From the IMG/VR virus record IMGVR_UViG_3300045988_038444, positions 1-43,689 of that record: a stretch of 43,689 nucleotides of DNA; one strand, given 5' to 3'. The notes beneath the pieces are model-generated. The model searched no databases. It saw only the letters and a program-made list of their open reading frames with translations, and was not told the DNA's origin. Position 1 is the stretch's first letter, and every line of letters starts with the position of its first letter. The stretch comes from a virus (taxonomy: Duplodnaviria; Heunggongvirae; Uroviricota; Caudoviricetes). Shown here piece by piece: positions 13,520-30,137 of the stretch. The position numbers and the translations under genes are program-made.

Positions 13520-16101
13520 TATATTTTCCTGTTCGCATCATAGTTAGACCTGAACGCTTTATTCGTCTGACTGTACGGGTCATTCCATTGTGCCGCTGAT
13601 TGTCGTGGGAATTCTTCACCTATGATAAGCACTACGTCATCCCGTGTTAATCCTTGTTTCACCTGAACACGTTCGCCACCGTAGTTATGAACCTGAATAT
13701 TAGGTGATGAACCACCTTCAGATCCGGGGGTGTATGTCCCACGATTCATTGCTTCCAGAGTGCTACGATAACGACTCGTAGCCTGTTTGGTACTGACAAA
13801 TTCACCATTACTCAAACGTGCGTTTATACTGTCACTCTGACCTGTACCCGGACCTTTAACATAACCACCCGTTGCAAAACCTGTTGCGGCCACAGACTGA
13901 ATGTTACCTAACACGCTTGTCCCGTATGATAAAGCCTGTGCAATGAACGGAATATTCGCCGGGAACGGCAACGCCATAGCCTGACTAACGGCTGTCCACA
14001 GGTTAATACTCGCCTGTGCGATACTAAAGGCTTTAGACAGTGCAAACATCGCTTTATATGCGTTTGATTGCTCACCTTTAGATTGTGCCAGACCAGCAGC
14101 CATTTGACCCAAAAAATCAGCACTGGATTGTAGCAACAAGCTGTAGTTAGCATTTGCAAGATTCATACGGGCTTGTTCCCCGGCCTGTTGAATCTGCGTT
14201 TTCATGTCCTGGTATTGTTGCTCGTTAATTAAATCTTGTTCACGGGCTTGTTGTATGACAGTAAGGCGTTGTGCTTCCTGTTGATTAACCTGATCAACCT
14301 GTGATTGATACGGGTTTAACTCACCCTGTACATCGGTTTGTACCTGTGAAACCTGACCAGCTAACTGTTGCGCCTGCTGTTGACGTTGCAATGCAGCCAC
14401 ATGTGCATCAACAGCGGCACGTTCAGCATCAGTCGCGTCTTTATTCAGTCGTGACTGTGCTTCTGCCTGTTGTGATGCCAGCGTTAACTGTTGACGTACC
14501 TGATATTCTTTCTGATATGTTGCTGTAAGTTGTTCAACAGACGACCCCTGTGTTAAGGCAATCTGAACCTGTTCACGGGCTAACTGAACATCATAATTAC
14601 CAGCATTGATTTTATCCTGAAGCGTTTTCAGGTATTTCTGGTTAGCAGCCTGATTACGTTCCAGTTCTTTCTGTGCACGTTTAGCCGCAGATGCTTCAGC
14701 ACTCGCTGATTTCTTCTGGTTTTTTTGATTTTCTTTATATTCTGCCTGTTGTTTCAACAACGCAGCATAGTCTGCAATCTGTTCCTTAGTTGCTTTATTA
14801 CCCAGTTTCTGACTTGCTGCCAGTTCATAGTTACCGTCAGCAAGCGCCTGGGTGTAGGTGATCTGTTCTTTCAGGTTTTTAATCTGTTTTTGTGCTTTCG
14901 CGTCTGATGCATTTGTCCCTTTTATAGAAATAGGTTTTGTAGCATCACGGTTTTTTTTAGCTTGTTCGTATCCAGCCGCAGATGCTTTAACAAATCTATC
15001 AACCTGGTCATTGTACGCTTTTGCATTATTTACATCATCGTTTGACCAGACCAGATCAGCAAGGGATGCCCCAGTAGCACCTGGTTGTAACTTAGATATT
15101 ACGCCAGCTATTGACCACAATTTATCAGCAGTTGTTGAATCATCGCCTAATTTATTGATGAAACCTGTAAGTGTATCAATAGCGTTTACAGCAAGATTTG
15201 ATGCTCCAGTCACGTCATTCATGCTTGCAACAAGCGTGGCTAACGATACAGATAACGAATTCGTAGCTTGATCTAAAGACCGTGGCAATTTGCTAAATTC
15301 TTCATCAACATTTTGCGTTTGACGAATAATAGCATTCAATGCTTGTTCCGCTGTGAGTTCACCATCCAGCATTTGCTGACGTAACTCACCCATTGAAACA
15401 CCTAAACCAGCAGCCATCTGTCTTGCCAGTTCTGGCATCTGTTCAACAATGCTGTTAAATTCTTCCGCACGAACTACACCAGATGAAATTGACTGACCAA
15501 ACTGACGTAATGCGTTAGACATTTCTTCAGCAGATGAACTACCAACACGACCTATTTTTTGAAGTGTTTCAGTTAATCGTAATATCTGATCGTTTGTTGC
15601 GCCGCTATCCTTTAATGACGATGATAAGGTTTCCCATAAACGTTCAGTATCAGCAAGACCACCACCTGTTTTAGAGGCAATATCCGCGAGTGTTTGAAAT
15701 GTTTGTTCGGCTGATGATGTACTCCCGGTCAATCTTGCAATACGAGCTTCGAGTTGATTAGCTGCATCACCCGCAACAATAAACGCTTTTCCTAACTCAA
15801 TAGCAGAAGACACCGCACCTATTGCCATAAAACCACGAACGGCGTTTGTTGCAAGATTTACGCCAGATGCCATCGACTTTAAAGATGATGTAGCGTTACC
15901 AGTATTTGACGCCATTACTTGTGCAGATTTTGCAGCTTGCTGTTCACTTTTTGATAAAGTGTTTGCCGCTTGTGCAGCAGATTTTGCAGAATTAGCTGTT
16001 TGGTCTAACTGGTTATTAAGGCTGTTAAGATTTCTGTCAGCGTTACCAGTGTCTATTTTTATATCAATCGGATACTGTGCCATTGTGGTTAACCTTTTCA
16101 C
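13519..16101 (-). CDS. Tail tape measure protein
   Basis: 860 aa, long low-complexity alpha-helical Q/A/E-rich sequence, downstream of tail chaperone genes. Confidence 0.75.
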   Translation of the reverse strand: MKRLTTMAQYPIDIKIDTGNADRNLNSLNNQLDQTANSAKSAAQAANTLSKSEQQAAKSAQVMASNTGNATSSLKSMASGVNLATNAVRGFMAIGAVSSAIELGKAFIVAGDAANQLEARIARLTGSTSSAEQTFQTLADIASKTGGGLADTERLWETLSSSLKDSGATNDQILRLTETLQKIGRVGSSSAEEMSNALRQFGQSISSGVVRAEEFNSIVEQMPELARQMAAGLGVSMGELRQQMLDGELTAEQALNAIIRQTQNVDEEFSKLPRSLDQATNSLSVSLATLVASMNDVTGASNLAVNAIDTLTGFINKLGDDSTTADKLWSIAGVISKLQPGATGASLADLVWSNDDVNNAKAYNDQVDRFVKASAAGYEQAKKNRDATKPISIKGTNASDAKAQKQIKNLKEQITYTQALADGNYELAASQKLGNKATKEQIADYAALLKQQAEYKENQKNQKKSASAEASAAKRAQKELERNQAANQKYLKTLQDKINAGNYDVQLAREQVQIALTQGSSVEQLTATYQKEYQVRQQLTLASQQAEAQSRLNKDATDAERAAVDAHVAALQRQQQAQQLAGQVSQVQTDVQGELNPYQSQVDQVNQQEAQRLTVIQQAREQDLINEQQYQDMKTQIQQAGEQARMNLANANYSLLLQSSADFLGQMAAGLAQSKGEQSNAYKAMFALSKAFSIAQASINLWTAVSQAMALPFPANIPFIAQALSYGTSVLGNIQSVAATGFATGGYVKGPGTGQSDSINARLSNGEFVSTKQATSRYRSTLEAMNRGTYTPGSEGGSSPNIQVHNYGGERVQVKQGLTRDDVVLIIGEEFPRQSAAQWNDPYSQTNKAFRSNYDANRKI

Positions 16102-16145
16102 GAAGCATATACACAGTTTAACACGGGTCTAAAAAGCGACAAACG

Positions 16146-16190
16146 TTTAAAATAATTCTTGACGGATTACACAATGATGTGTAACCTACA
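16146..16190 (+). promoter_or_regulatory. Conserved early promoter copy: A/T-rich UP-like tttaaaataattc, -35 TTGACG (16159-16164), 17-nt spacer, -10 taacct
   Basis: One of at least nine near-identical plus-strand copies of tttaaaataattcTTGAC. Confidence 0.7.
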
Positions 16191-16217
16191 ATCAACAAAA
16201 CAACGGAGAGTTACAAA

Positions 16218-16397
16218 ATGGCTACTTTCATCATTCTTTTCTTAATCGCTGCTGTATATCTGATCCCAGCACTCATCGCGATTAACGTTAAACATAAACA
16301 ACAAACAGCAATTATTTTACTTAACATCTTTGCGGGTTGGACATTCGTCGGTTGGTTAGGTGCGTTAATCTGGTCTGTGTTAAAAAGCGACAAATAA
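16218..16397 (+). CDS. Superinfection-immunity-like small membrane protein (59 aa)
   Basis: Below track cutoff. ggagag RBS; MATFIILFLIAAVYLIPALIAINVKHKQQTAIILLNIFAGWTFVGWLGALIWSVLKSDK matches my recollection of the Imm_superinfect family pattern. Confidence 0.55.
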   Translation: MATFIILFLIAAVYLIPALIAINVKHKQQTAIILLNIFAGWTFVGWLGALIWSVLKSDK

Positions 16398-16398
16398 G

Positions 16399-17310
16399 AT
16401 GAGTAGGAAACGTTTAACCACAGAAGAGTTTATCACGCGTGCCCGTGAAGTTCATGGGCACAAATACGATTACTCACTAGTGGAGTATTTGAATTGGCGC
16501 ACACCTGTGAAAATCATCTGTCCTATACATGGAGTGTTTGAACAAATTCCTAATAATCATTTAAAAGGACGCAAGTGTTTATTCTGTGCAGGAAATCAAC
16601 AATCAAATACCAATGAATTTATCACAAGGGGGCGCGAAGTTCATGGGGGTAAGTATGGTTATTCGTTGGTGAAATATAAAGACTCTCGGACCAAAGTGAA
16701 AATCATTTGTCCAATACACGGAATGTTTGAACAACGTCCATATAGTCACTTGCAGCAAAAAGCAGGTTGCCCACAATGTGCTTGGGAACAATTGTCTGAA
16801 CAAAGACGTTTATCCGCCGAAGAATTCATTACTCGTGCTCGCGAAGTTCACGGGGACCGTTACGACTATTCGTTGGTGGAGTATGTTAACAATTCCACCC
16901 CTGTAAAAATTATTTGTTCAGAACACGGTGTGTTTGAACAGACACCGGGCAATCACACATTTATGAAAGCTGGCTGTCCCCAGTGCGCTGAAACAGGTTT
17001 TAATCCGTCAGAACCCGGCACGTTATATGTACTCGCTGATGATAAACAGTATCCCACTCTGATTAAAATTGGTATTACAAACGACTTAAAACAGCGACTA
17101 CGACAACTACAACGACGAACTCCGCATCTTGTGGTTAAACTTGTATCGTATCCGTTCCCACATGGCGCTGACGCTTACAAACTGGAACAAGAGGTACACA
17201 AGGTCTTTCACGAACTTAATGCGCGTCTCAAAGGCTTTGACGGTGCTACAGAGTGGTTTAAATACTCTCCTGCAATCCTCGATTACATAAATGAAAAAGC
17301 CCGGAACTAA
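16399..17310 (+). CDS. T5orf172-domain (GIY-YIG-like) protein with three N-terminal zinc-ribbon-like repeats; homing-endonuclease-like
   Basis: Three ~60-aa repeats EEFITRAREVHGxKYDYSLVEY...PVKIICPIHGVFEQ...GCPQC; C-terminal YVL...KIGIT...TEWF matches the T5orf172 pattern. Confidence 0.65.
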   Translation: MSRKRLTTEEFITRAREVHGHKYDYSLVEYLNWRTPVKIICPIHGVFEQIPNNHLKGRKCLFCAGNQQSNTNEFITRGREVHGGKYGYSLVKYKDSRTKVKIICPIHGMFEQRPYSHLQQKAGCPQCAWEQLSEQRRLSAEEFITRAREVHGDRYDYSLVEYVNNSTPVKIICSEHGVFEQTPGNHTFMKAGCPQCAETGFNPSEPGTLYVLADDKQYPTLIKIGITNDLKQRLRQLQRRTPHLVVKLVSYPFPHGADAYKLEQEVHKVFHELNARLKGFDGATEWFKYSPAILDYINEKARN

Positions 17311-17330
17311 CCGGGCTTATGTTTATTTTT
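17299..17330. terminator. Rho-independent terminator (gcccgg-aactaa-ccgggc plus T-rich tail)
   Basis: Hairpin overlaps the stop codons of convergent genes 16399..17310 and 17307..17591. Confidence 0.55.
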
Positions 17331-18165: not shown

Positions 18166-18486
18166 ATGGCGATTATTAACATGGGTTGGCATAGTTCTGT
18201 TTTTGAAGGAAATGTTAAACTCCTGGAAGGGGCATATAGTCCTATCCATCGTAATGATATTGGTGGCGATTACCCACCATCTTATTTTCTATACGAAACT
18301 GATCATGGGTGCTGTATCAAAGAACGTGAACGTAACGGTTACCATGATTCAGATTTTGAAATGTTAATATGGAACCCTGAAACAAAAAAGCGCTTCATGG
18401 TATACATTTGCAACTACCCGTGGTTGGTGTTATCCATGCTATGGTTCACGCCCAGATGCAACACCAGAAGTTTTAGAAGCATATAA
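18166..18486 (+). CDS. Hypothetical protein (frame-1 part of a possibly frame-split gene)
   Basis: 106-aa ORF after the promoter; an overlapping frame-2 ORF continues to 18790. Confidence 0.4.
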   Translation: MAIINMGWHSSVFEGNVKLLEGAYSPIHRNDIGGDYPPSYFLYETDHGCCIKERERNGYHDSDFEMLIWNPETKKRFMVYICNYPWLVLSMLWFTPRCNTRSFRSI

Positions 18487-18790
18487 TATTTATGAACAAC
18501 AGCAAGAGGAAAAACGGCAACGTTATTGCAAAATAAAAAGAGTAAACAAGCAACGCAAACTGAACGCACAGTTTAGATTAATAGTACGTGAATTTGGTGT
18601 TGATCGCGAACAAGTTGAAAAACTTTATAAATTATATCACCCAGATATGTTCCCTGTATTTTGTAAACTTCTTAACAGTAATTTACGTTCTGATTTCCGT
18701 AAAAGTTTACGTAAACAACTAGTTGATTGGTTAAAAGGGAACGGTAAGTACGATAAACCATTTTCACCTAAACAAATTCAGTATTTATGA
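18368..18790 (+). CDS. Frame-2 continuation ORF with no start codon (possible frameshifted 3' part of the 18166 gene)
   Basis: 140 sense codons from stop at 18365-18367 to TGA 18788-18790; no ATG/GTG/TTG near its 5' end; A6 run at 18384-18389 in the overlap. Confidence 0.3.
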   Translation, partial: YGTLKQKSASWYTFATTRGWCYPCYGSRPDATPEVLEAYNIYEQQQEEKRQRYCKIKRVNKQRKLNAQFRLIVREFGVDREQVEKLYKLYHPDMFPVFCKLLNSNLRSDFRKSLRKQLVDWLKGNGKYDKPFSPKQIQYL

Positions 18791-20759: not shown

Positions 20760-21181
20760 TGATTAAACCTCACCATTATTCCGGCTTTTAATATAGCACG
20801 TTCGACAAACCCGGAAGGTGTCTGTGTACTGCTACCACCATTGAGAACCCCAATGTAAGGAACGTTGTTAGTAATATGCAGTTCCTGACCATTAACTTTA
20901 ATACTGCTGATAGTGACTGTATCCTGTTCGATACGTGCTTTACTGGCTTCAACATTACCTGTTGGTGTATCAGGACTATTAGCGGGTTGCCCCTGATCGA
21001 ACCACCAGTTGTTGCTTGCCCAGCCACTCAATATTGGTGTACCATCAGGAGGCTCACTTATGAGTATGTTACGTAGTGTTAAAACATATCTAATGACTTG
21101 ACGATCCGTAAAATCTTGTAAGTCGGCTTTTATGTCTTTAAACACTCCAGTAATACGATTTATATCATTGATTTTGCTAGT
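20756..21181 (-). CDS. Head-tail joining protein (putative)
   Basis: Track ORF 20756..21250; start moved to internal Met 21181 (MTSKINDINR...) because the 5' extension collides with the divergent plus gene. Confidence 0.35.
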   Translation of the reverse strand, partial: TSKINDINRITGVFKDIKADLQDFTDRQVIRYVLTLRNILISEPPDGTPILSGWASNNWWFDQGQPANSPDTPTGNVEASKARIEQDTVTISSIKVNGQELHITNNVPYIGVLNGGSSTQTPSGFVERAILKAGIMVRFNQ

Positions 21182-21206
21182 CATTGACAAACCTAAAGGT
21201 AGAAAA

Positions 21207-22103
21207 ATGGGCGGTAAAAGACTAACCAAAGAACAACTAGAGCATAACATAAAAGATATTTGTCAATCAAAAAATTACAAATTTATAAAATGGAAAGACG
21301 GGTTTAAAAACAAAGAATCACGAATTATTTTATCTTGTGTTACACACGGGGAATGGGACACTAAATGTTATCATTTTTTGAATGGTTCTGGTTGTCCGAT
21401 CTGTGGTGGAACACGAACCACAAAAGGGTTAAGAATTGCACAGATTAAAGACAGTTTAACAAATTCTAAATCAAAGTTTATTAAATTTAAAACTAATTTT
21501 CAAAATGGAAATTCTGTTTGTTTGCTGAGCTGTATTGATCATGGTGGATGGGAGACAACAGTCAATAGACTAATCTTTACATCTGTTGATTGCCCGTTGT
21601 GTATAACGAATAGACAGAAAACTAAACAAGAACGAGAAATTGAAATAACAAATAGATGTAAAGAAACAGGGTTGTTTTTTAATAAGATATTCGACGAACA
21701 TCCGACATGGAAATCTAAAATATCATTAAAGTGTTCAACGCATGGTGATTTTGTTACAACAATTAATTCTTTTCTTAGTAAACAAAAAGGTTGTCCAAAC
21801 TGTAGTAAAACAGGGTTTAAAGCTGGTAAGTATGCAACACTTTATGTCTTGCGGTCCACATGCGGTCGTTACGTTAAAATAGGTATCAGTAATTGTGTAG
21901 AGCAAAGAATTAATACACTTCGTAGAAAAACACCATTTGATTTTCAAGTAATAGAAAAATTGAATGGACACGGGGCAACCATTCGTTCACTTGAAAAAGA
22001 TTTTCATTCTCATTTTGAATCTGCAGGATTAACCGGGTTCGATGGTTGTACAGAGTGGTTAAAATGGAATCCAAATATAACCACTCTGATACGGATGTTA
22101 TAG
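21207..22103 (+). CDS. T5orf172-domain (GIY-YIG-like) protein with zinc-ribbon-like repeats, second copy
   Basis: Start taken at ATG 21207 (MGGKRLTKEQ...). Repeats with HG...GCPxC modules and C-terminal TLYVL...VKIGIS...TEWLKW. Confidence 0.65.
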   Translation: MGGKRLTKEQLEHNIKDICQSKNYKFIKWKDGFKNKESRIILSCVTHGEWDTKCYHFLNGSGCPICGGTRTTKGLRIAQIKDSLTNSKSKFIKFKTNFQNGNSVCLLSCIDHGGWETTVNRLIFTSVDCPLCITNRQKTKQEREIEITNRCKETGLFFNKIFDEHPTWKSKISLKCSTHGDFVTTINSFLSKQKGCPNCSKTGFKAGKYATLYVLRSTCGRYVKIGISNCVEQRINTLRRKTPFDFQVIEKLNGHGATIRSLEKDFHSHFESAGLTGFDGCTEWLKWNPNITTLIRML

Positions 22104-22481
22104 TTATACCGCTCCAACAGGATGAATAAATGCCATATCATCCCCTAACAATCGTGGGTTTTGACGATCAAGAAGGCGATATTCTTTACCACGTTCATCA
22201 ACCACAACATCACCCCGATCAGGAACAAATCGTGGTTCAAAACTCTGACTATCCATAATTACCATCGTTGTGGTTATTCTGGTCATAGTAGTCGGATCCC
22301 ACTTTTCTAATGGGTAAATATAACCACGACACGTATGCGATTCAGTAACGGTTGTACCCGGTAATGTAGGATTAGACGGGTTGGGAACTGTTATCACACG
22401 TTTTACCGTCAAATCCTCACCTACTTCAGCAAGTGCACGAGTAACACCTTTCAGGACACTTTGACGTTTGTCTGCCATCAC
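22104..22481 (-). CDS. Head-tail connector / head completion protein (putative)
   Basis: 125-aa ORF, position. Confidence 0.35.
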   Translation of the reverse strand: MMADKRQSVLKGVTRALAEVGEDLTVKRVITVPNPSNPTLPGTTVTESHTCRGYIYPLEKWDPTTMTRITTTMVIMDSQSFEPRFVPDRGDVVVDERGKEYRLLDRQNPRLLGDDMAFIHPVGAV

Positions 22482-25309: not shown

Positions 25310-26568
25310 TATTCGTCACCTCGCATCGCTTCGATTGCTTCCTGACCTTTTTTAGTTGCAGAAACTGCCTGCATAGCCTGGGTGCGTGTTTTACCCGGAT
25401 TTGCTTTCAGCCATTCGTTGATCATGTCTTCCAGTGCACTGGAACCTTTACCACTACCGTTCGGCGCTGCTGGCTCTTTACGTGCTTTCCAGAGTTCGTC
25501 GGCCTGTTTGAGTTTTTCAACCAGAAAGTTACGATCCGCTTCCGGTAAACGCTCAAGAGTCATGACCATTTGGGTTTTCTGTACCATTTCACCCGGAATG
25601 TGTGCGAAATCAGCGTTCACGGTTTTTTCAGCTTTCGCCAGTGCCGCTTCAGTCTGTGCTTTGCGAAGTTGTTCGTCCTGAGATTTCAGAACATCATACA
25701 TCGGACCAGCTACAGACTTCTGAACAACCTGACCAGCAATCGTGGTAAACGATTCATCAGCCTGTTTAGCCATCGTCACGAGGGCATCGCGAGCAGTGGC
25801 ATCCATTTTACGGAATGCTTCCTGATCAGATTCAGGCAGAGAATTATGATACGCCTTATGGACGTCGTTCATCTCAGCCAGGGCTTTGTATTTTTCCAGT
25901 TCGGACATTTCGATTTCCTCTGCCGTTTTTAAAACTTGAGGTACTTCCTGGTCCGGGTGTAATTTTTTCCACGCGGATCGGACTTTGTTTTTCACACCTG
26001 CTAAATCGGCTTCAGGGATTTCAACTTTGTTACCGCGATAACCCGGACCTAATGCAGCAAGTGCAGCGCCTACAATACGCGCATCAGGTTCACCGCCAGG
26101 GGTAGCTGTTAAACGAAGTTTCCAGGTTGAAGGTTTTTCTGGATCTGGCACATATGCATAATCAGATGCCGGGAAAACTTCACCGTCTTCAGTTTTACCA
26201 CCTTTCGCTTTATTCATCGAAATACCAGCGGCCTGTTGCAACGTTATAATATATTCATTTACCGCGTCACGCAATGCTGCTTGTTTATCGGTAACAGAAT
26301 CATCTTTTGCAATATCCTCTGCTGCTTCATAAAGCGCATCGTTCAACATCCACGAATTAGAGAGGAAATCACGAACTTTCTGTTCAAGTTCTTTTTCAGC
26401 CAGTGCCGCGCTGAATGTTGACTTTAAAAGAACAACAGCAGGCGGTTCTGAATGTGATTTAAGAACAAGAGCATTTGCTCCCTCGTGAGCAGGTTTTGTC
26501 ACGCCGGACAGAAAACCGATCTTCATCGATTTAGCGCGGCGTAAATGATTAGTACCATCTGTACGCAT
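25309..26568 (-). CDS. Capsid scaffolding-like protein (putative)
   Basis: 419 aa with a long charged alpha-helical C-terminal half; ATG overlaps the upstream stop (taATG). Confidence 0.35.
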   Translation of the reverse strand: MRTDGTNHLRRAKSMKIGFLSGVTKPAHEGANALVLKSHSEPPAVVLLKSTFSAALAEKELEQKVRDFLSNSWMLNDALYEAAEDIAKDDSVTDKQAALRDAVNEYIITLQQAAGISMNKAKGGKTEDGEVFPASDYAYVPDPEKPSTWKLRLTATPGGEPDARIVGAALAALGPGYRGNKVEIPEADLAGVKNKVRSAWKKLHPDQEVPQVLKTAEEIEMSELEKYKALAEMNDVHKAYHNSLPESDQEAFRKMDATARDALVTMAKQADESFTTIAGQVVQKSVAGPMYDVLKSQDEQLRKAQTEAALAKAEKTVNADFAHIPGEMVQKTQMVMTLERLPEADRNFLVEKLKQADELWKARKEPAAPNGSGKGSSALEDMINEWLKANPGKTRTQAMQAVSATKKGQEAIEAMRGDE

Positions 26569-26978
26569 TATTCCACATCCTCATAATATGCAGTTCCACC
26601 GATACTATATCCCGTATATTCACCAGTCTGAAACTTTTTCAAAACTTCGTCATCAGTTATCAACGTACCAACAATGACGCCTGTCTGATCCAGTTTATCA
26701 ACCAGTCCAAAACTTGCTGCAATGTCTTCGGTCATCGGGAACGCAAACACAACTTTCCCAACAGGTTGTTGATTATGCATATTATCCATGATGCGCTGAT
26801 CAGAATTCATGAAGTCCAACCATGCTTTCAGAGTGACATCCTCGGGAAATTGCTCGTTGTCCGTGTCTGTGTAAATTTCTAACTGACCTGTCTCCTGATT
26901 ACGTTTTTTACAGATACTACCCCAACCGAATACCATACGTAGTGAGTTGTCAACCTTATTAACTTTTACGTTAATCAC
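26568..26978 (-). CDS. Hypothetical head-module protein
   Basis: 136-aa ORF in the head gene block. Confidence 0.35.
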   Translation of the reverse strand: MINVKVNKVDNSLRMVFGWGSICKKRNQETGQLEIYTDTDNEQFPEDVTLKAWLDFMNSDQRIMDNMHNQQPVGKVVFAFPMTEDIAASFGLVDKLDQTGVIVGTLITDDEVLKKFQTGEYTGYSIGGTAYYEDVE

Positions 26979-27385
26979 GGGGATTGTCCTCGTATTGTTT
27001 CAACATGACTAAATTCTAACATTTCGGATGAATAATTGCACTGGTGATACACGCTGTTTACAACGTTACCGAATATCTCAGAAAGATTCTTGATCGGTTC
27101 AACAGCAGTCGTTACTGGTTCAACAGCAGTCGTTACTGGTTCAACAGTAGTCGTTACCGGTTCAACAGTAGTCGTTACCGGTTCAACAGCAGTCGTTACT
27201 GGTTCAACAGCGTCCAGATGTTCAGCGACAACCTGGAAAAACACTGTGTTAGTTTCACGGTCAATAATAACCACTGTGCTGGAACTATCTTCAACAATGC
27301 TGAATGAGTAGTCGTAACGATCACCGTGAATTTTACGGGCGCGACGAATGAATTCGTCTGTAGCAACTCTGATGTTCGGATCCAT
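26975..27385 (-). CDS. Repeat protein: N-terminal KYDYS module followed by six VEPVTT(A/T) heptad repeats
   Basis: Start taken at ATG 27385 (MDPNIRVATDEFIRRARKIHGDRYDYS...); the N-terminal module matches the repeat unit of the T5orf172 genes. Confidence 0.5.
   Translation of the reverse strand: MDPNIRVATDEFIRRARKIHGDRYDYSFSIVEDSSSTVVIIDRETNTVFFQVVAEHLDAVEPVTTAVEPVTTTVEPVTTTVEPVTTAVEPVTTAVEPIKNLSEIFGNVVNSVYHQCNYSSEMLEFSHVETIRGQSP
27105..27218 (-). repeat. Coding tandem repeat, 21-bp unit (ttcaacagcagtcgttactgg on the plus strand), about 5.5 copies
   Basis: Direct repeats visible at 27105-27218; encode VEPVTTA heptads on the minus strand. Confidence 0.85.
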
Positions 27386-27411: not shown

Positions 27412-27456
27412 CCACAGGGTAGTTGTGTCGGTGTAATCCGTCAAGAATTATTTTGC
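27412..27456 (-). promoter_or_regulatory. Inverted copy of the conserved early promoter, reading leftward
   Basis: Plus gtaatccgtcaagaattatttt is the reverse complement of aaaataattcttgacggattac; downstream leader nearly matches the plus copy at 27742. Confidence 0.6.
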
Positions 27457-27887: not shown

Positions 27888-28436
27888 ATGAACGAACTGA
27901 CAAACACCAACGTTGATTTCACAATGTCCAGCCTGGATTTCTTGAAGAATGTTATCAACCCAGCACGTGTGGCTGAAGGTGAGGAAGTCTGGGTCCGTCA
28001 TAATGATTTCTTAGCCAGAGTTAAGGATGAATTAGAAGGTCAAGTTTTGGTTACGAAACTTTTCACACCCAAACTTCAGGGAAGAGGTGGCAATAGAAAA
28101 CCGTTTGAAGTGGTCGATCTAAACATGGATCAAATGCTTCTTGTGGGTATGCGTGAATCTAAAGCCGTTCGCAAAGCTGTATTAGCCAAATTAAAGAAGT
28201 TGAATAACCACCAACACCAACCGTTACTACAGTTACAGTGTGAAATCGGAGAATTGCACAAACAGAATGACGAACTACGTAACGAAATTGAAGTCGATCG
28301 TAAGACCTATGATTTGTTGTTGGTAGACATGAAAAAGTTATGGGAAGAGAAAGAAAATCTGCAAAAAGAATTAACTGCTTTGCGTAAACAGGATGATGTT
28401 CGTAAACGTGCGCTTAAACTTTTACTTGGGTTATAA
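27888..28436 (+). CDS. Hypothetical early protein with C-terminal coiled-coil
   Basis: 182-aa ORF; agagg RBS; heptad-like charged C-terminus. Confidence 0.5.
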   Translation: MNELTNTNVDFTMSSLDFLKNVINPARVAEGEEVWVRHNDFLARVKDELEGQVLVTKLFTPKLQGRGGNRKPFEVVDLNMDQMLLVGMRESKAVRKAVLAKLKKLNNHQHQPLLQLQCEIGELHKQNDELRNEIEVDRKTYDLLLVDMKKLWEEKENLQKELTALRKQDDVRKRALKLLLGL

Positions 28437-28876: not shown

Positions 28877-29114
28877 TCGCTATGGGAATGAAACAAATAT
28901 GGGATGGTAAAACCTTCCTTCTGTTGGTTGTGAAGTATTGATCCATCTGGCAAGCATTAACAAGTGGGTGGCACGAACTGTTCAGGGTTATGAAATATGG
29001 CCTTCTGTTTATGAAAATGATACGGCACATCACAGGGTAAACATAAAATTTGAAGATAATGTTCGTCTGTTATGTGATGTGCGACCTCTTGACTGGCGTG
29101 AACCTGATTAACTT

Positions 29115-29176
29115 GGTTCGATGGCTGTACTGAGTGGTTAAAATGGAATCCAAATATAACCACTCTAATACGTATA
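29115..29176 (+). pseudogene. Remnant of the 3' end of a T5orf172-type gene
   Basis: ggttcgatggctgtactgagtggttaaaatggaatccaaatataaccactctaatacg is near-identical to 22038-22095 (end of gene 21207..22103); encodes FDGCTEWLKWNPNITTLIR but has an in-frame TGA at 29105-29107 just upstream. Confidence 0.6.
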
Positions 29177-29177
29177 A

Positions 29178-30137
29178 TCACGGGATAACATTTATATCTT
29201 GAGGGAGAGAATAAGCAACCCGGCAACGACAATTAATCACGTTCGCAGCACTACCGTTAGGATCACGAGGAAACATAAGTGGTCCTAACGGCGTTGAAAA
29301 CGGTCTGTCCATTGGTATCCAGCCGTTCGTTTCACCTGTAGAAATATGCGCATCACGTGTCCGACCATCTTTTCTATATAACCAGCGCTTCAGCAATTCA
29401 TTACTAATAGCCCCGGTAATCTGTCCCTGACGTATTGCCTGATCCTGACCAACTGATACAGCACGAAGTGATTCAGTACGCGCTATTGTCTCTGTACGCT
29501 GTTTTACATAACGCAAGCGTGTCTGTTCGATTATCTGGTCAATCTTCACCTGTGATAGTTTCCCGGCACTTACAGCGTTCTTCGCACTGTCTGTAACAGT
29601 GGTCAGACTGTTCACATAACCTGCTTCACCTTTTTCCAGTGCTGATCGTAGACGTTGAACCGTCATTTCCTGCCGTGTGGTTAACCCTATTGATGATCGA
29701 AAATCACGGGCTATCTGACGCGGATTTCGTCCGGTTACCATACCCTGGTTAACTGCAATCTGAACAGCTTTGACTGTTTCGTCACTGACTTCACGGATCA
29801 GTTGTCCGACATAGTTGTTGATATATGTGCTGACCTGTGGGGTGACCAGACTGAACACAACCGGACCTGTTACAGCCGCTTTCGGTAGAACCTGAACGAC
29901 TACACGACCTGATTCAGCGATCGCATCTTCAATAACCGGGCGCAACTGTGCACTAAGTTCATCAGGAAGTGTTTCAAGAATGGGGAGTAACCCGGCAATA
30001 CCTTGGGTTTCAATAATGTATTCCAGGTTGGCTAACGACTCACTACGACGCACGTTTTCCCACACAACATCAAGTGCTTCGCGAATGCGAGCGTCATACT
30101 TGTCTGAAATATCCGGGTATGGGTCTTTAGTAGCCAT
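29178..30137 (-). CDS. Head morphogenesis protein (Mu F / SPP1 gp7-like minor head protein)
   Basis: 319 aa; C-terminal DGRTRDAH ... NCRC pattern typical of the Phage_Mu_F family. Confidence 0.65.
   Translation of the reverse strand: MATKDPYPDISDKYDARIREALDVVWENVRRSESLANLEYIIETQGIAGLLPILETLPDELSAQLRPVIEDAIAESGRVVVQVLPKAAVTGPVVFSLVTPQVSTYINNYVGQLIREVSDETVKAVQIAVNQGMVTGRNPRQIARDFRSSIGLTTRQEMTVQRLRSALEKGEAGYVNSLTTVTDSAKNAVSAGKLSQVKIDQIIEQTRLRYVKQRTETIARTESLRAVSVGQDQAIRQGQITGAISNELLKRWLYRKDGRTRDAHISTGETNGWIPMDRPFSTPLGPLMFPRDPNGSAANVINCRCRVAYSLPQDINVIP

Follow-up and report, generated by a model that had tools for sequence, protein, structure and literature searches.

The Seg proteins of bacteriophage T4 and I-TevI carry a GIY-YIG nuclease domain at the N-terminus, joined to modular DNA-binding elements, and the GIY-YIG homing-endonuclease genes (HEGs) of T4 show intergenic insertion, co-conversion of flanking DNA and a cycle in which the genes invade, decay and are finally lost. 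The T5orf172/MUG113 domain is another branch of the GIY-YIG nuclease superfamily. Among the T5orf172 HEGs, 87% carry CapR, DUF723 or DUF4379 zinc fingers, often in repeated form; their repeats recombine, their domains shuffle and the genes stand at the borders of exchanged segments (Barth, Dunham & Seed 2023, PMC10448857). For the activity of Odn, a related T5orf172 nuclease, a glutamate is required (PMC10448857). In gel shifts with CapR, DNA binding was abolished by mutating four cysteines (Netter et al. 2021, PMC8096241). Here we describe a 43,689-nucleotide stretch of tailed-phage DNA (IMG/VR record IMGVR_UViG_3300045988_038444, analysed over its full length and called the window below). 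It appears to come from a Sashavirus-like siphophage and to hold two intact free-standing T5orf172 HEGs, designated HEG1 and HEG2, together with two decayed copies, designated the relic and the scar (Table 1). We give this reading a probability of about 0.88. Family membership, architecture, insertion polymorphism, the divergent flank of HEG2 and the kinship of the decayed copies are shown below; the binding of zinc and DNA, cleavage and homing are predicted with the help of the CapR and Odn results.

The protein encoded by HEG1 contains three consecutive units of ~63 residues, every one of which has a C-x2-HG motif followed 16–17 residues later by C-x2-C. Local alignments of these units with one another score 187–202 against shuffle means of ~22 (z 41–44), and none of 300 shuffles reached an equal score. 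HEG2 contains three more divergent units, in which the C-x2-HG...C-x2-C skeleton is kept. These give z values of 7–19 among themselves and 1.4–11 against the HEG1 units, and all three are matched by a profile of the unit at E ~1e-17 to 1e-19. The preliminary description of this DNA, which had placed three copies of a KYDYS zinc-ribbon-like module in HEG1 and variant copies in HEG2, was correct on both points, including the coordinates and the pattern in HEG1. The formal self-comparison that it proposed gives a strong alignment for the HEG1 units, but one or two HEG2–HEG1 pairs are non-significant when taken alone. All six units, three in each protein, contain C-x2-H...C-x2-C, and C40, H43, C60 and C63 are nearly invariant in an alignment of 37 units. 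A profile search of the six-frame translation of the window gave no further copies of the unit (E > 0.5).

Family searches place both proteins among known endonucleases. HEG1 matches Pfam DUF723 (PF05265) in three stretches with 62.4 bits (cut-off 20.9) and DUF4379, for which Pfam gives a probable treble clef zinc finger, with 26.0 bits (cut-off 24.5). HEG2 matches the CapR homology family (PF21817), also in three stretches, with 66.1 bits (E 3e-18, cut-off 24.2). The C-termini match T5orf172 (HEG1 50.0 bits, HEG2 23.9 bits, cut-off 20) and MUG113 (47.3 and 34.6 bits, cut-off 22.3), and PHROG 681, "endonuclease", covers the full length of HEG1 (E 5e-85) and HEG2 (E 4e-64). More than 7600 homologues were found at E ≤ 1e-10, with DUF723, DUF4379 or CapR joined to T5orf172; relatives occur in ~1000 phage records, with up to 10 copies per genome, and exact or near-exact copies of HEG1 are already called "DUF723 domain-containing protein" by NCBI. 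The unit is therewith a putative zinc module, and the earlier view of it as a Cys/His module of a DNA-binding family agrees with these matches to DUF723, CapR and DUF4379 and with the published DNA binding of CapR (PMC8096241). No NCBIfam match above cut-off was obtained for HEG1, HEG2 or the relic, and the Pfam scan of ten other large open reading frames (ORFs) in the window found no other endonuclease genes. A defence-system assignment was also considered and dropped; PADLOC gave only weak matches of the T5orf172 domain to the candidate system PDC-S57.

Conservation and predicted structure are consistent with this assignment. When HEG2 is aligned with the HEG1 homologues, the columns that hold the ligands in units 2 and 3 (C104/H107/C124/C127 and C173/H176/C193/C196) are invariant, and in an alignment of 19 sequences so are Y210, K223, G225, R233 and E285 of the nuclease domain, HEG2 included. 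By analogy with the glutamate dependence of Odn (PMC10448857), Y210, R233 and E285 are putative catalytic residues. The AlphaFold2 model of full-length HEG1 (pLDDT 82, pTM 0.40) consists of three separate alpha+beta units and an alpha/beta nuclease domain. In the modelled unit a helix and a strand are followed by a beta-hairpin bearing C-x2-H, a short helix, and C-x2-C at the start of a helix; one unit modelled alone reaches pLDDT 89.8 and pTM 0.74. The only plausible Protein Data Bank (PDB) matches of the full model in Foldseek, both of them weak, are the GIY-YIG nucleases Slx1 (6sei) and At-HIGLE (7wme). The isolated unit has no solved relative in the PDB by sequence or by fold, and a PDB sequence search returned nothing for HEG1 or for the unit profile.

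These results bear on the earlier proposal that domain shuffling within one genome had placed copies of a DNA-binding module in three proteins with different functions. It is true that the unit can be recognised in each of three ORFs, and that homologues are mosaic at the level of the unit. Between HEG1 and P0090, a 308-aa HEG1 homologue on a related contig, identity is 36% in unit 1, 79% in unit 3 and 87% in the nuclease domain, and the nucleotide identity of HEG2 to the phage PDP46 endonuclease gene PDP46_0032 (79.5%) is confined to the last ~240 nt, within the part coding for the nuclease domain. However, HEG1 and HEG2 share a complete architecture and not the module alone, and the third ORF, the relic, retains both ends of a full-length HEG that is intact at the same site elsewhere. 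The units inside the window genome are only 50–63% identical in nucleotides, so no recent copying within the genome took place. Shuffling into three different proteins is thus very improbable, two of them being complete paralogous PHROG 681 endonuclease genes and the third a deletion derivative. There is some domain-level mosaicism among the homologues, a pattern already published for the family (PMC10448857). The mobile unit is a complete selfish gene that enters from other phages, not a module moved into unrelated proteins; this is seen in its presence and absence among phages that are 94–96% identical overall.

The genome comparisons rest on close relatives: the window is 94–96% identical over aligned blocks to Salmonella phage Sasha and to Escherichia phages Bas82, PJ16, 536P12 and BDX09P1, and most 250-nt windows flanking the insertions are 97–100% identical to the relatives. 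HEG1 and HEG2 lie on the plus strand, among tape measure, tail chaperone, tail tube, terminator, neck, head and protease genes on the minus strand. Where the HEG1 block stands, Sasha has 9 bp; Bas82 has the block. The junctions of the HEG1 and HEG2 insertions could be placed to the single base. It consists of a promoter-like motif, an Imm_superinfect gene and HEG1, and a pre-existing terminator hairpin lies at its end. Nucleotide identity with the Bas82 allele is only 65–77% in the DNA-binding region of HEG1, against 97–100% in the flanks. The adjoining 5' third of the tape-measure gene, 14900..16125(-), is ~45–55% identical to Sasha and 97–100% identical to Bas82; the rest of that gene is 96–98% identical to Sasha, as is the side of HEG1 away from the mosaic stretch. 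Since identity to Sasha is ~45–55% on one side and 96–98% on the other, the boundary of the mosaic block coincides with the HEG1 insertion. The small membrane protein encoded 1 bp upstream of HEG1, in the same inserted block, belongs to the T4 Imm superinfection-immunity family, and its gene may possibly be cargo mobilised with HEG1.

HEG2 is absent from Sasha and Bas82, which have ~24 bp instead and in which the neck1-like start and the gp39 stop are one base apart. The neck1-like tract adjoining HEG2 has 46–48 mismatches in 170 bp (~27%) against Sasha and Bas82, followed by only 1–2 in the next 230 bp (<1%), and the neck1-like N-terminus changes from MAKANVNDINR to MTSKINDINR beside HEG2. 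A tract bounded as sharply as this looks like the product of co-conversion in which the donor was a diverged phage. In a collection of 50,697 phage genomes no protein is more than 46% identical to HEG2. The identical protein is encoded in metagenomic phage contigs, at the same site in six of six places among the matches listed (50 index blocks, 23 contigs examined, six places displayed). It should be mentioned that the ORF extends over 21132..22103(+); its true start is most likely 21207, because the family match begins there and the gene calls of public contigs use this position.

The intact genes might instead have been domesticated, either as CapR-like transcriptional regulators or as nucleases directed, like Odn of ICP1, against satellites or competing phages. 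Both kinds are documented in the family (PMC8096241, PMC10448857), HEG1 is apparently co-transcribed with the superinfection-immunity-like gene from a phage promoter motif, and the weak PDC-S57 match of the T5orf172 domain points the same way. Against this stand the patchy occurrence of HEG1 and HEG2 at fixed sites among near-identical phages, and the co-conversion-like flank of HEG2 and the decayed copies at two more sites, which are signatures of selfish turnover and not of a gene kept for its benefit. The residues of the nuclease domain are moreover intact, unlike in CapR, which only binds DNA. We consider domestication improbable.

For HEG1 and HEG2 as selfish homing elements, the best-supported mechanism is the one usual for free-standing HEGs. 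The three tandem modules of each protein would form a 'beads-on-a-string' DNA-recognition region that binds zinc and reads a long target lacking the HEG, and the C-terminal T5orf172 domain would be the nuclease that cuts the recognised target. During co-infection the enzyme would cut the cognate HEG-less site in a related phage, located for HEG1 in the intergenic region between the tape-measure and tail-chaperone genes and for HEG2 at the junction of the gp39-like and neck1-like genes. Recombinational repair would then carry the HEG, and part of the DNA beside it, over to the genome that was cut. The relic, with its internal deletion, and the scar, with its near-complete deletion, represent later stages of the HEG life cycle, derived from paralogues of HEG1 and HEG2 at other sites.

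Some points weigh against this reading. The homing of T5orf172 HEGs is experimentally unverified according to PMC10448857. The fold matches to Slx1 and At-HIGLE are weak (probability 0.69–0.91, E 0.2–0.7). Finally, there is no phage promoter motif upstream of HEG2, where only a 9-of-12 match to the sigma-70 consensus is present.

The relic is the ORF for which the preliminary description had claimed a further module at the N-terminus. The homology is real: the N-terminus gives z 17–18 against the HEG1 units, and the ORF is matched at E 3e-10 by a profile that was built without the relic and its closest relative to avoid circularity. The match covers only profile positions 3–53 of 65, or ~50 residues, and all four zinc ligands are lost (CPIHG has become DRETN, and CxxC is gone), so that a complete Cys/His unit is not present. 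The relic also has no DUF723 or CapR Pfam match at E ≤ 1, and no protein family was matched. It is best described as a homologous remnant and not as a functional member of the zinc-module family.

The origin of this ORF is indicated by P0090, which begins with the N-terminus of the relic (70 residues; 85% identity over 82 aligned). The common N-terminal part includes the ligand-less unit and the sequence VEPVTTAVEPV, and the C-termini are ...KYSSEMLDYINNRYRGQPP in P0090 and ...NYSSEMLEFSHVETIRGQSP in the relic. P0090 occupies the site of the relic in the related contig, directly upstream of the XkdF-like protease gene with a 4-bp overlap, and contig positions 772–1504 and 2162–3688 are 95.6% and 92.7% identical in nucleotides to window positions 27907–27176 and 27037–25514, respectively. 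Between these, 657 bp of the P0090 gene, encoding units 2–3 and most of the nuclease domain, are replaced in the window by 138 bp with extra 21-bp repeats. Both termini of the relic match the full-length P0090 at the same site, which argues that it arose by deletion; by this comparison it is an internally deleted full-length endonuclease gene and not a protein that gained a domain. The part of P0090 that is missing from the relic is 80% identical in nucleotides to HEG1, and the ancestor of the relic would therefore be a HEG1 paralogue at a second site.

A possible co-option of this remnant was also considered, by which it would now be a small protein with a VEPVTTA repeat of variable length, made under the control of the head-operon promoter. 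The frame is open in 7 of 7 phages examined, with an in-frame repeat number of 2, 3 or 5 (~1.5 in P0090), the promoter motif is kept, and so is the 4-bp overlap with the downstream XkdF-like protease gene. The ratio of nonsynonymous to synonymous polymorphism (pN/pS) of ~0.32 is below 1, but this constraint is ~8-fold weaker than that on the neighbouring gene (0.04) and is based on few, non-independent substitutions; it indicates relaxed constraint, the substitutions being too few to separate neutral decay from residual function. The ORF has neither zinc ligands nor a nuclease domain and matches no family, and genome comparison found Sasha to be entirely without it, as Sergei and Solent probably are too, judged from a 60% megablast coverage profile. 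Taken together, co-option is unlikely, and a specific function of the ligand-less module and the expanding 7-aa repeat in head-gene regulation or assembly is less probable still. If true, it would be a step beyond the CapR-type domestication of HEGs.

The second decayed copy, the scar, lies exactly where phage PDP46 carries PDP46_0032, an intact gene for a 307-aa endonuclease; the window is without the corresponding 918 bp, and Bas82 has neither gene nor scar at this site. The window genome thus holds two HEG lineages, one with DUF723 and one with CapR modules, and in both of them one copy is intact and one decayed.

Table 1. Features of the two homing-endonuclease genes, the decayed copies and their surroundings in the 43,689-nucleotide window.
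Feature	Position	Strand	Basis or remark
Inserted block with HEG1, 1161 bp	16126..17286	+	Between tape-measure gene start and tail-chaperone terminator; blastn breakpoints, junction sequences
Promoter-like motif AAAATAATTCTTGACGGATTACA	16149..16171	+	Upstream of imm-like gene and HEG1; one of 10 window copies
59-aa membrane protein, Imm_superinfect (PF14373)	16218..16397	+	E 3.4e-17; Bas82 annotation: superinfection immunity protein
HEG1, intact 303-aa T5orf172-type homing-endonuclease gene, three DUF723 units	16399..17310	+	Pfam, PHROG 681, model
HEG1 unit 1, aa 6-66; C41, H44, C60, C63	16414..16596	+	Pattern, shuffle test, profile
HEG1 unit 2, aa 69-131; C104, H107, C124, C127	16603..16791	+	Pattern, shuffle test, alignment, profile
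HEG1 unit 3, aa 137-199; C173, H176, C193, C196	16807..16995	+	Pattern, shuffle test, alignment, model, profile
HEG1 T5orf172/MUG113 nuclease domain, aa 205-298	17011..17292	+	Pfam, alignment
Bidirectional terminator-like hairpin, common to Sasha	17297..17318		Loop holds HEG1 stop codon
Neck1-like gene 5' end, divergent tract of ~170 bp	21015..21184	-	Adjoins HEG2; comparison with Sasha, Bas82
HEG2 insertion, 919 bp	21185..22103	+	Exactly between neck1-like start codon (21182..21184) and stop of Sasha gp39 homologue (22104..22106)
HEG2, intact 298-aa T5orf172-type homing-endonuclease gene	21207..22103	+	CapR, MUG113, T5orf172, PHROG 681 matches
HEG2 CapR-type units	21219..21416, 21417..21614, 21615..21815	+	CapR, three stretches
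HEG2 nuclease domain	21816..22100	+	MUG113/T5orf172
Relic ORF, 136 aa	26975..27385	-	Retains ~70 codons at the start and ~20 at the end of a P0090-like endonuclease gene
21-bp tandem repeat, 5.5 copies, 95% matches, encoding VEPVTTA	27096..27211	-	Repeat analysis
Degenerate unit without zinc ligands, relic aa 4-57	27215..27376	-	Shuffle test, alignment, profile
Promoter-like motif copy	27432..27454	-	Upstream of relic ORF and head operon
Scar, 27-codon 3' remnant of a HEG2-like T5orf172 gene, LTWFDGCTEWLKWNPNITTLIRIITG and stop	29108..29188	+	62/67 nt identical to HEG2 3' end
AAAATAATTCTTGACGGATTACA copies (window starts)	16149, 18095, 27432(-), 27745, 31346, 32488, 34711, 38130, 39492, 41340		

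The promoter-like motif that precedes the HEG1 block, the 23-nt AAAATAATTCTTGACGGATTACA, occurs in 10 copies in the window at ≤3 mismatches, where chance would give 0. Within it are a stretch rich in A and T and a -35-like element, TTGAC. The motif precedes several plus-strand genes and the head operon; it is probably the early or middle promoter consensus of the phage itself.

Two further observations concern neighbouring genes. The gene downstream of the relic, 26568..26978(-), matches PF14550, a family of XkdF-like serine proteases of phages (E 8e-8), and the label "DNA methyltransferase" that its homologue bears in the Sasha and Bas82 records is probably wrong. Between the tail chaperone and tail tube genes lies the homologue of Sasha gp43, 18166..18787(+), a protein of 207 aa in Sasha. 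It is broken by one extra A in an A-run near 18384, leaving an ORF of 106 aa; a genuine frameshift or an error in sequencing the homopolymer would account for the break. Bas82 has unrelated sequence here.

Everything found at HEG1 and HEG2 fits the published description of T5orf172 HEGs. The "KYDYS module" is, by its family matches, the DNA-binding domain, already catalogued, of a selfish element that is very common in phages, and no new explanation is needed for it. The modest value of the locus lies elsewhere. Within 44 kb the window offers a compact example of the HEG life cycle, in which two genes are intact, one is deleted internally and one is reduced to a terminal scar, with intact or empty counterparts in relatives. 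This phage paired with Sasha, Bas82 or PDP46 would provide ready donor/recipient pairs for T5orf172 homing. The window also offers a system for the question of how a target is defined by three zinc modules in a row, and the unit is a candidate for the first structure of this module.

We have compared the locus with the systems named at the outset. HEG1 and HEG2 resemble T4 Seg and I-TevI in combining a GIY-YIG-superfamily nuclease with 'beads on a string' DNA binding. In contrast to these, their nuclease domain is C-terminal and of the T5orf172 subfamily, and helix-turn-helix or NUMOD elements are absent. With CapR of the Vibrio cholerae PLE satellite they share a homologous zinc module, as seen in the match of HEG2 to PF21817. 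The ligand pattern here is C-x2-H...C-x2-C, against the CxxC...CxC reported for CapR, and CapR acts alone as a repressor, with a single module and no nuclease domain. In HEG1 and HEG2 three modules are joined to a nuclease domain that is apparently intact. The relic is not an analogue of CapR, because its zinc ligands are lost. A further likeness is to the HEGs of Vibrio phage ICP1 and its relatives (gp165 and gp174 among them; PMC10448857), in which tandem N-terminal CapR, DUF723 or DUF4379 units are likewise followed by a C-terminal T5orf172 domain. As in ICP1, the genes are free-standing near essential genes, present as several paralogues per genome and located at exchange boundaries, and their DNA-binding repeats evolve faster than the nuclease domain. 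The differences from the ICP1 genes are minor ones: HEG1 and HEG2 belong to an enterobacterial Sashavirus-like siphophage lineage, occupy lineage-specific insertion sites, and are accompanied in the same genome by two preserved stages of decay beside the two intact genes.

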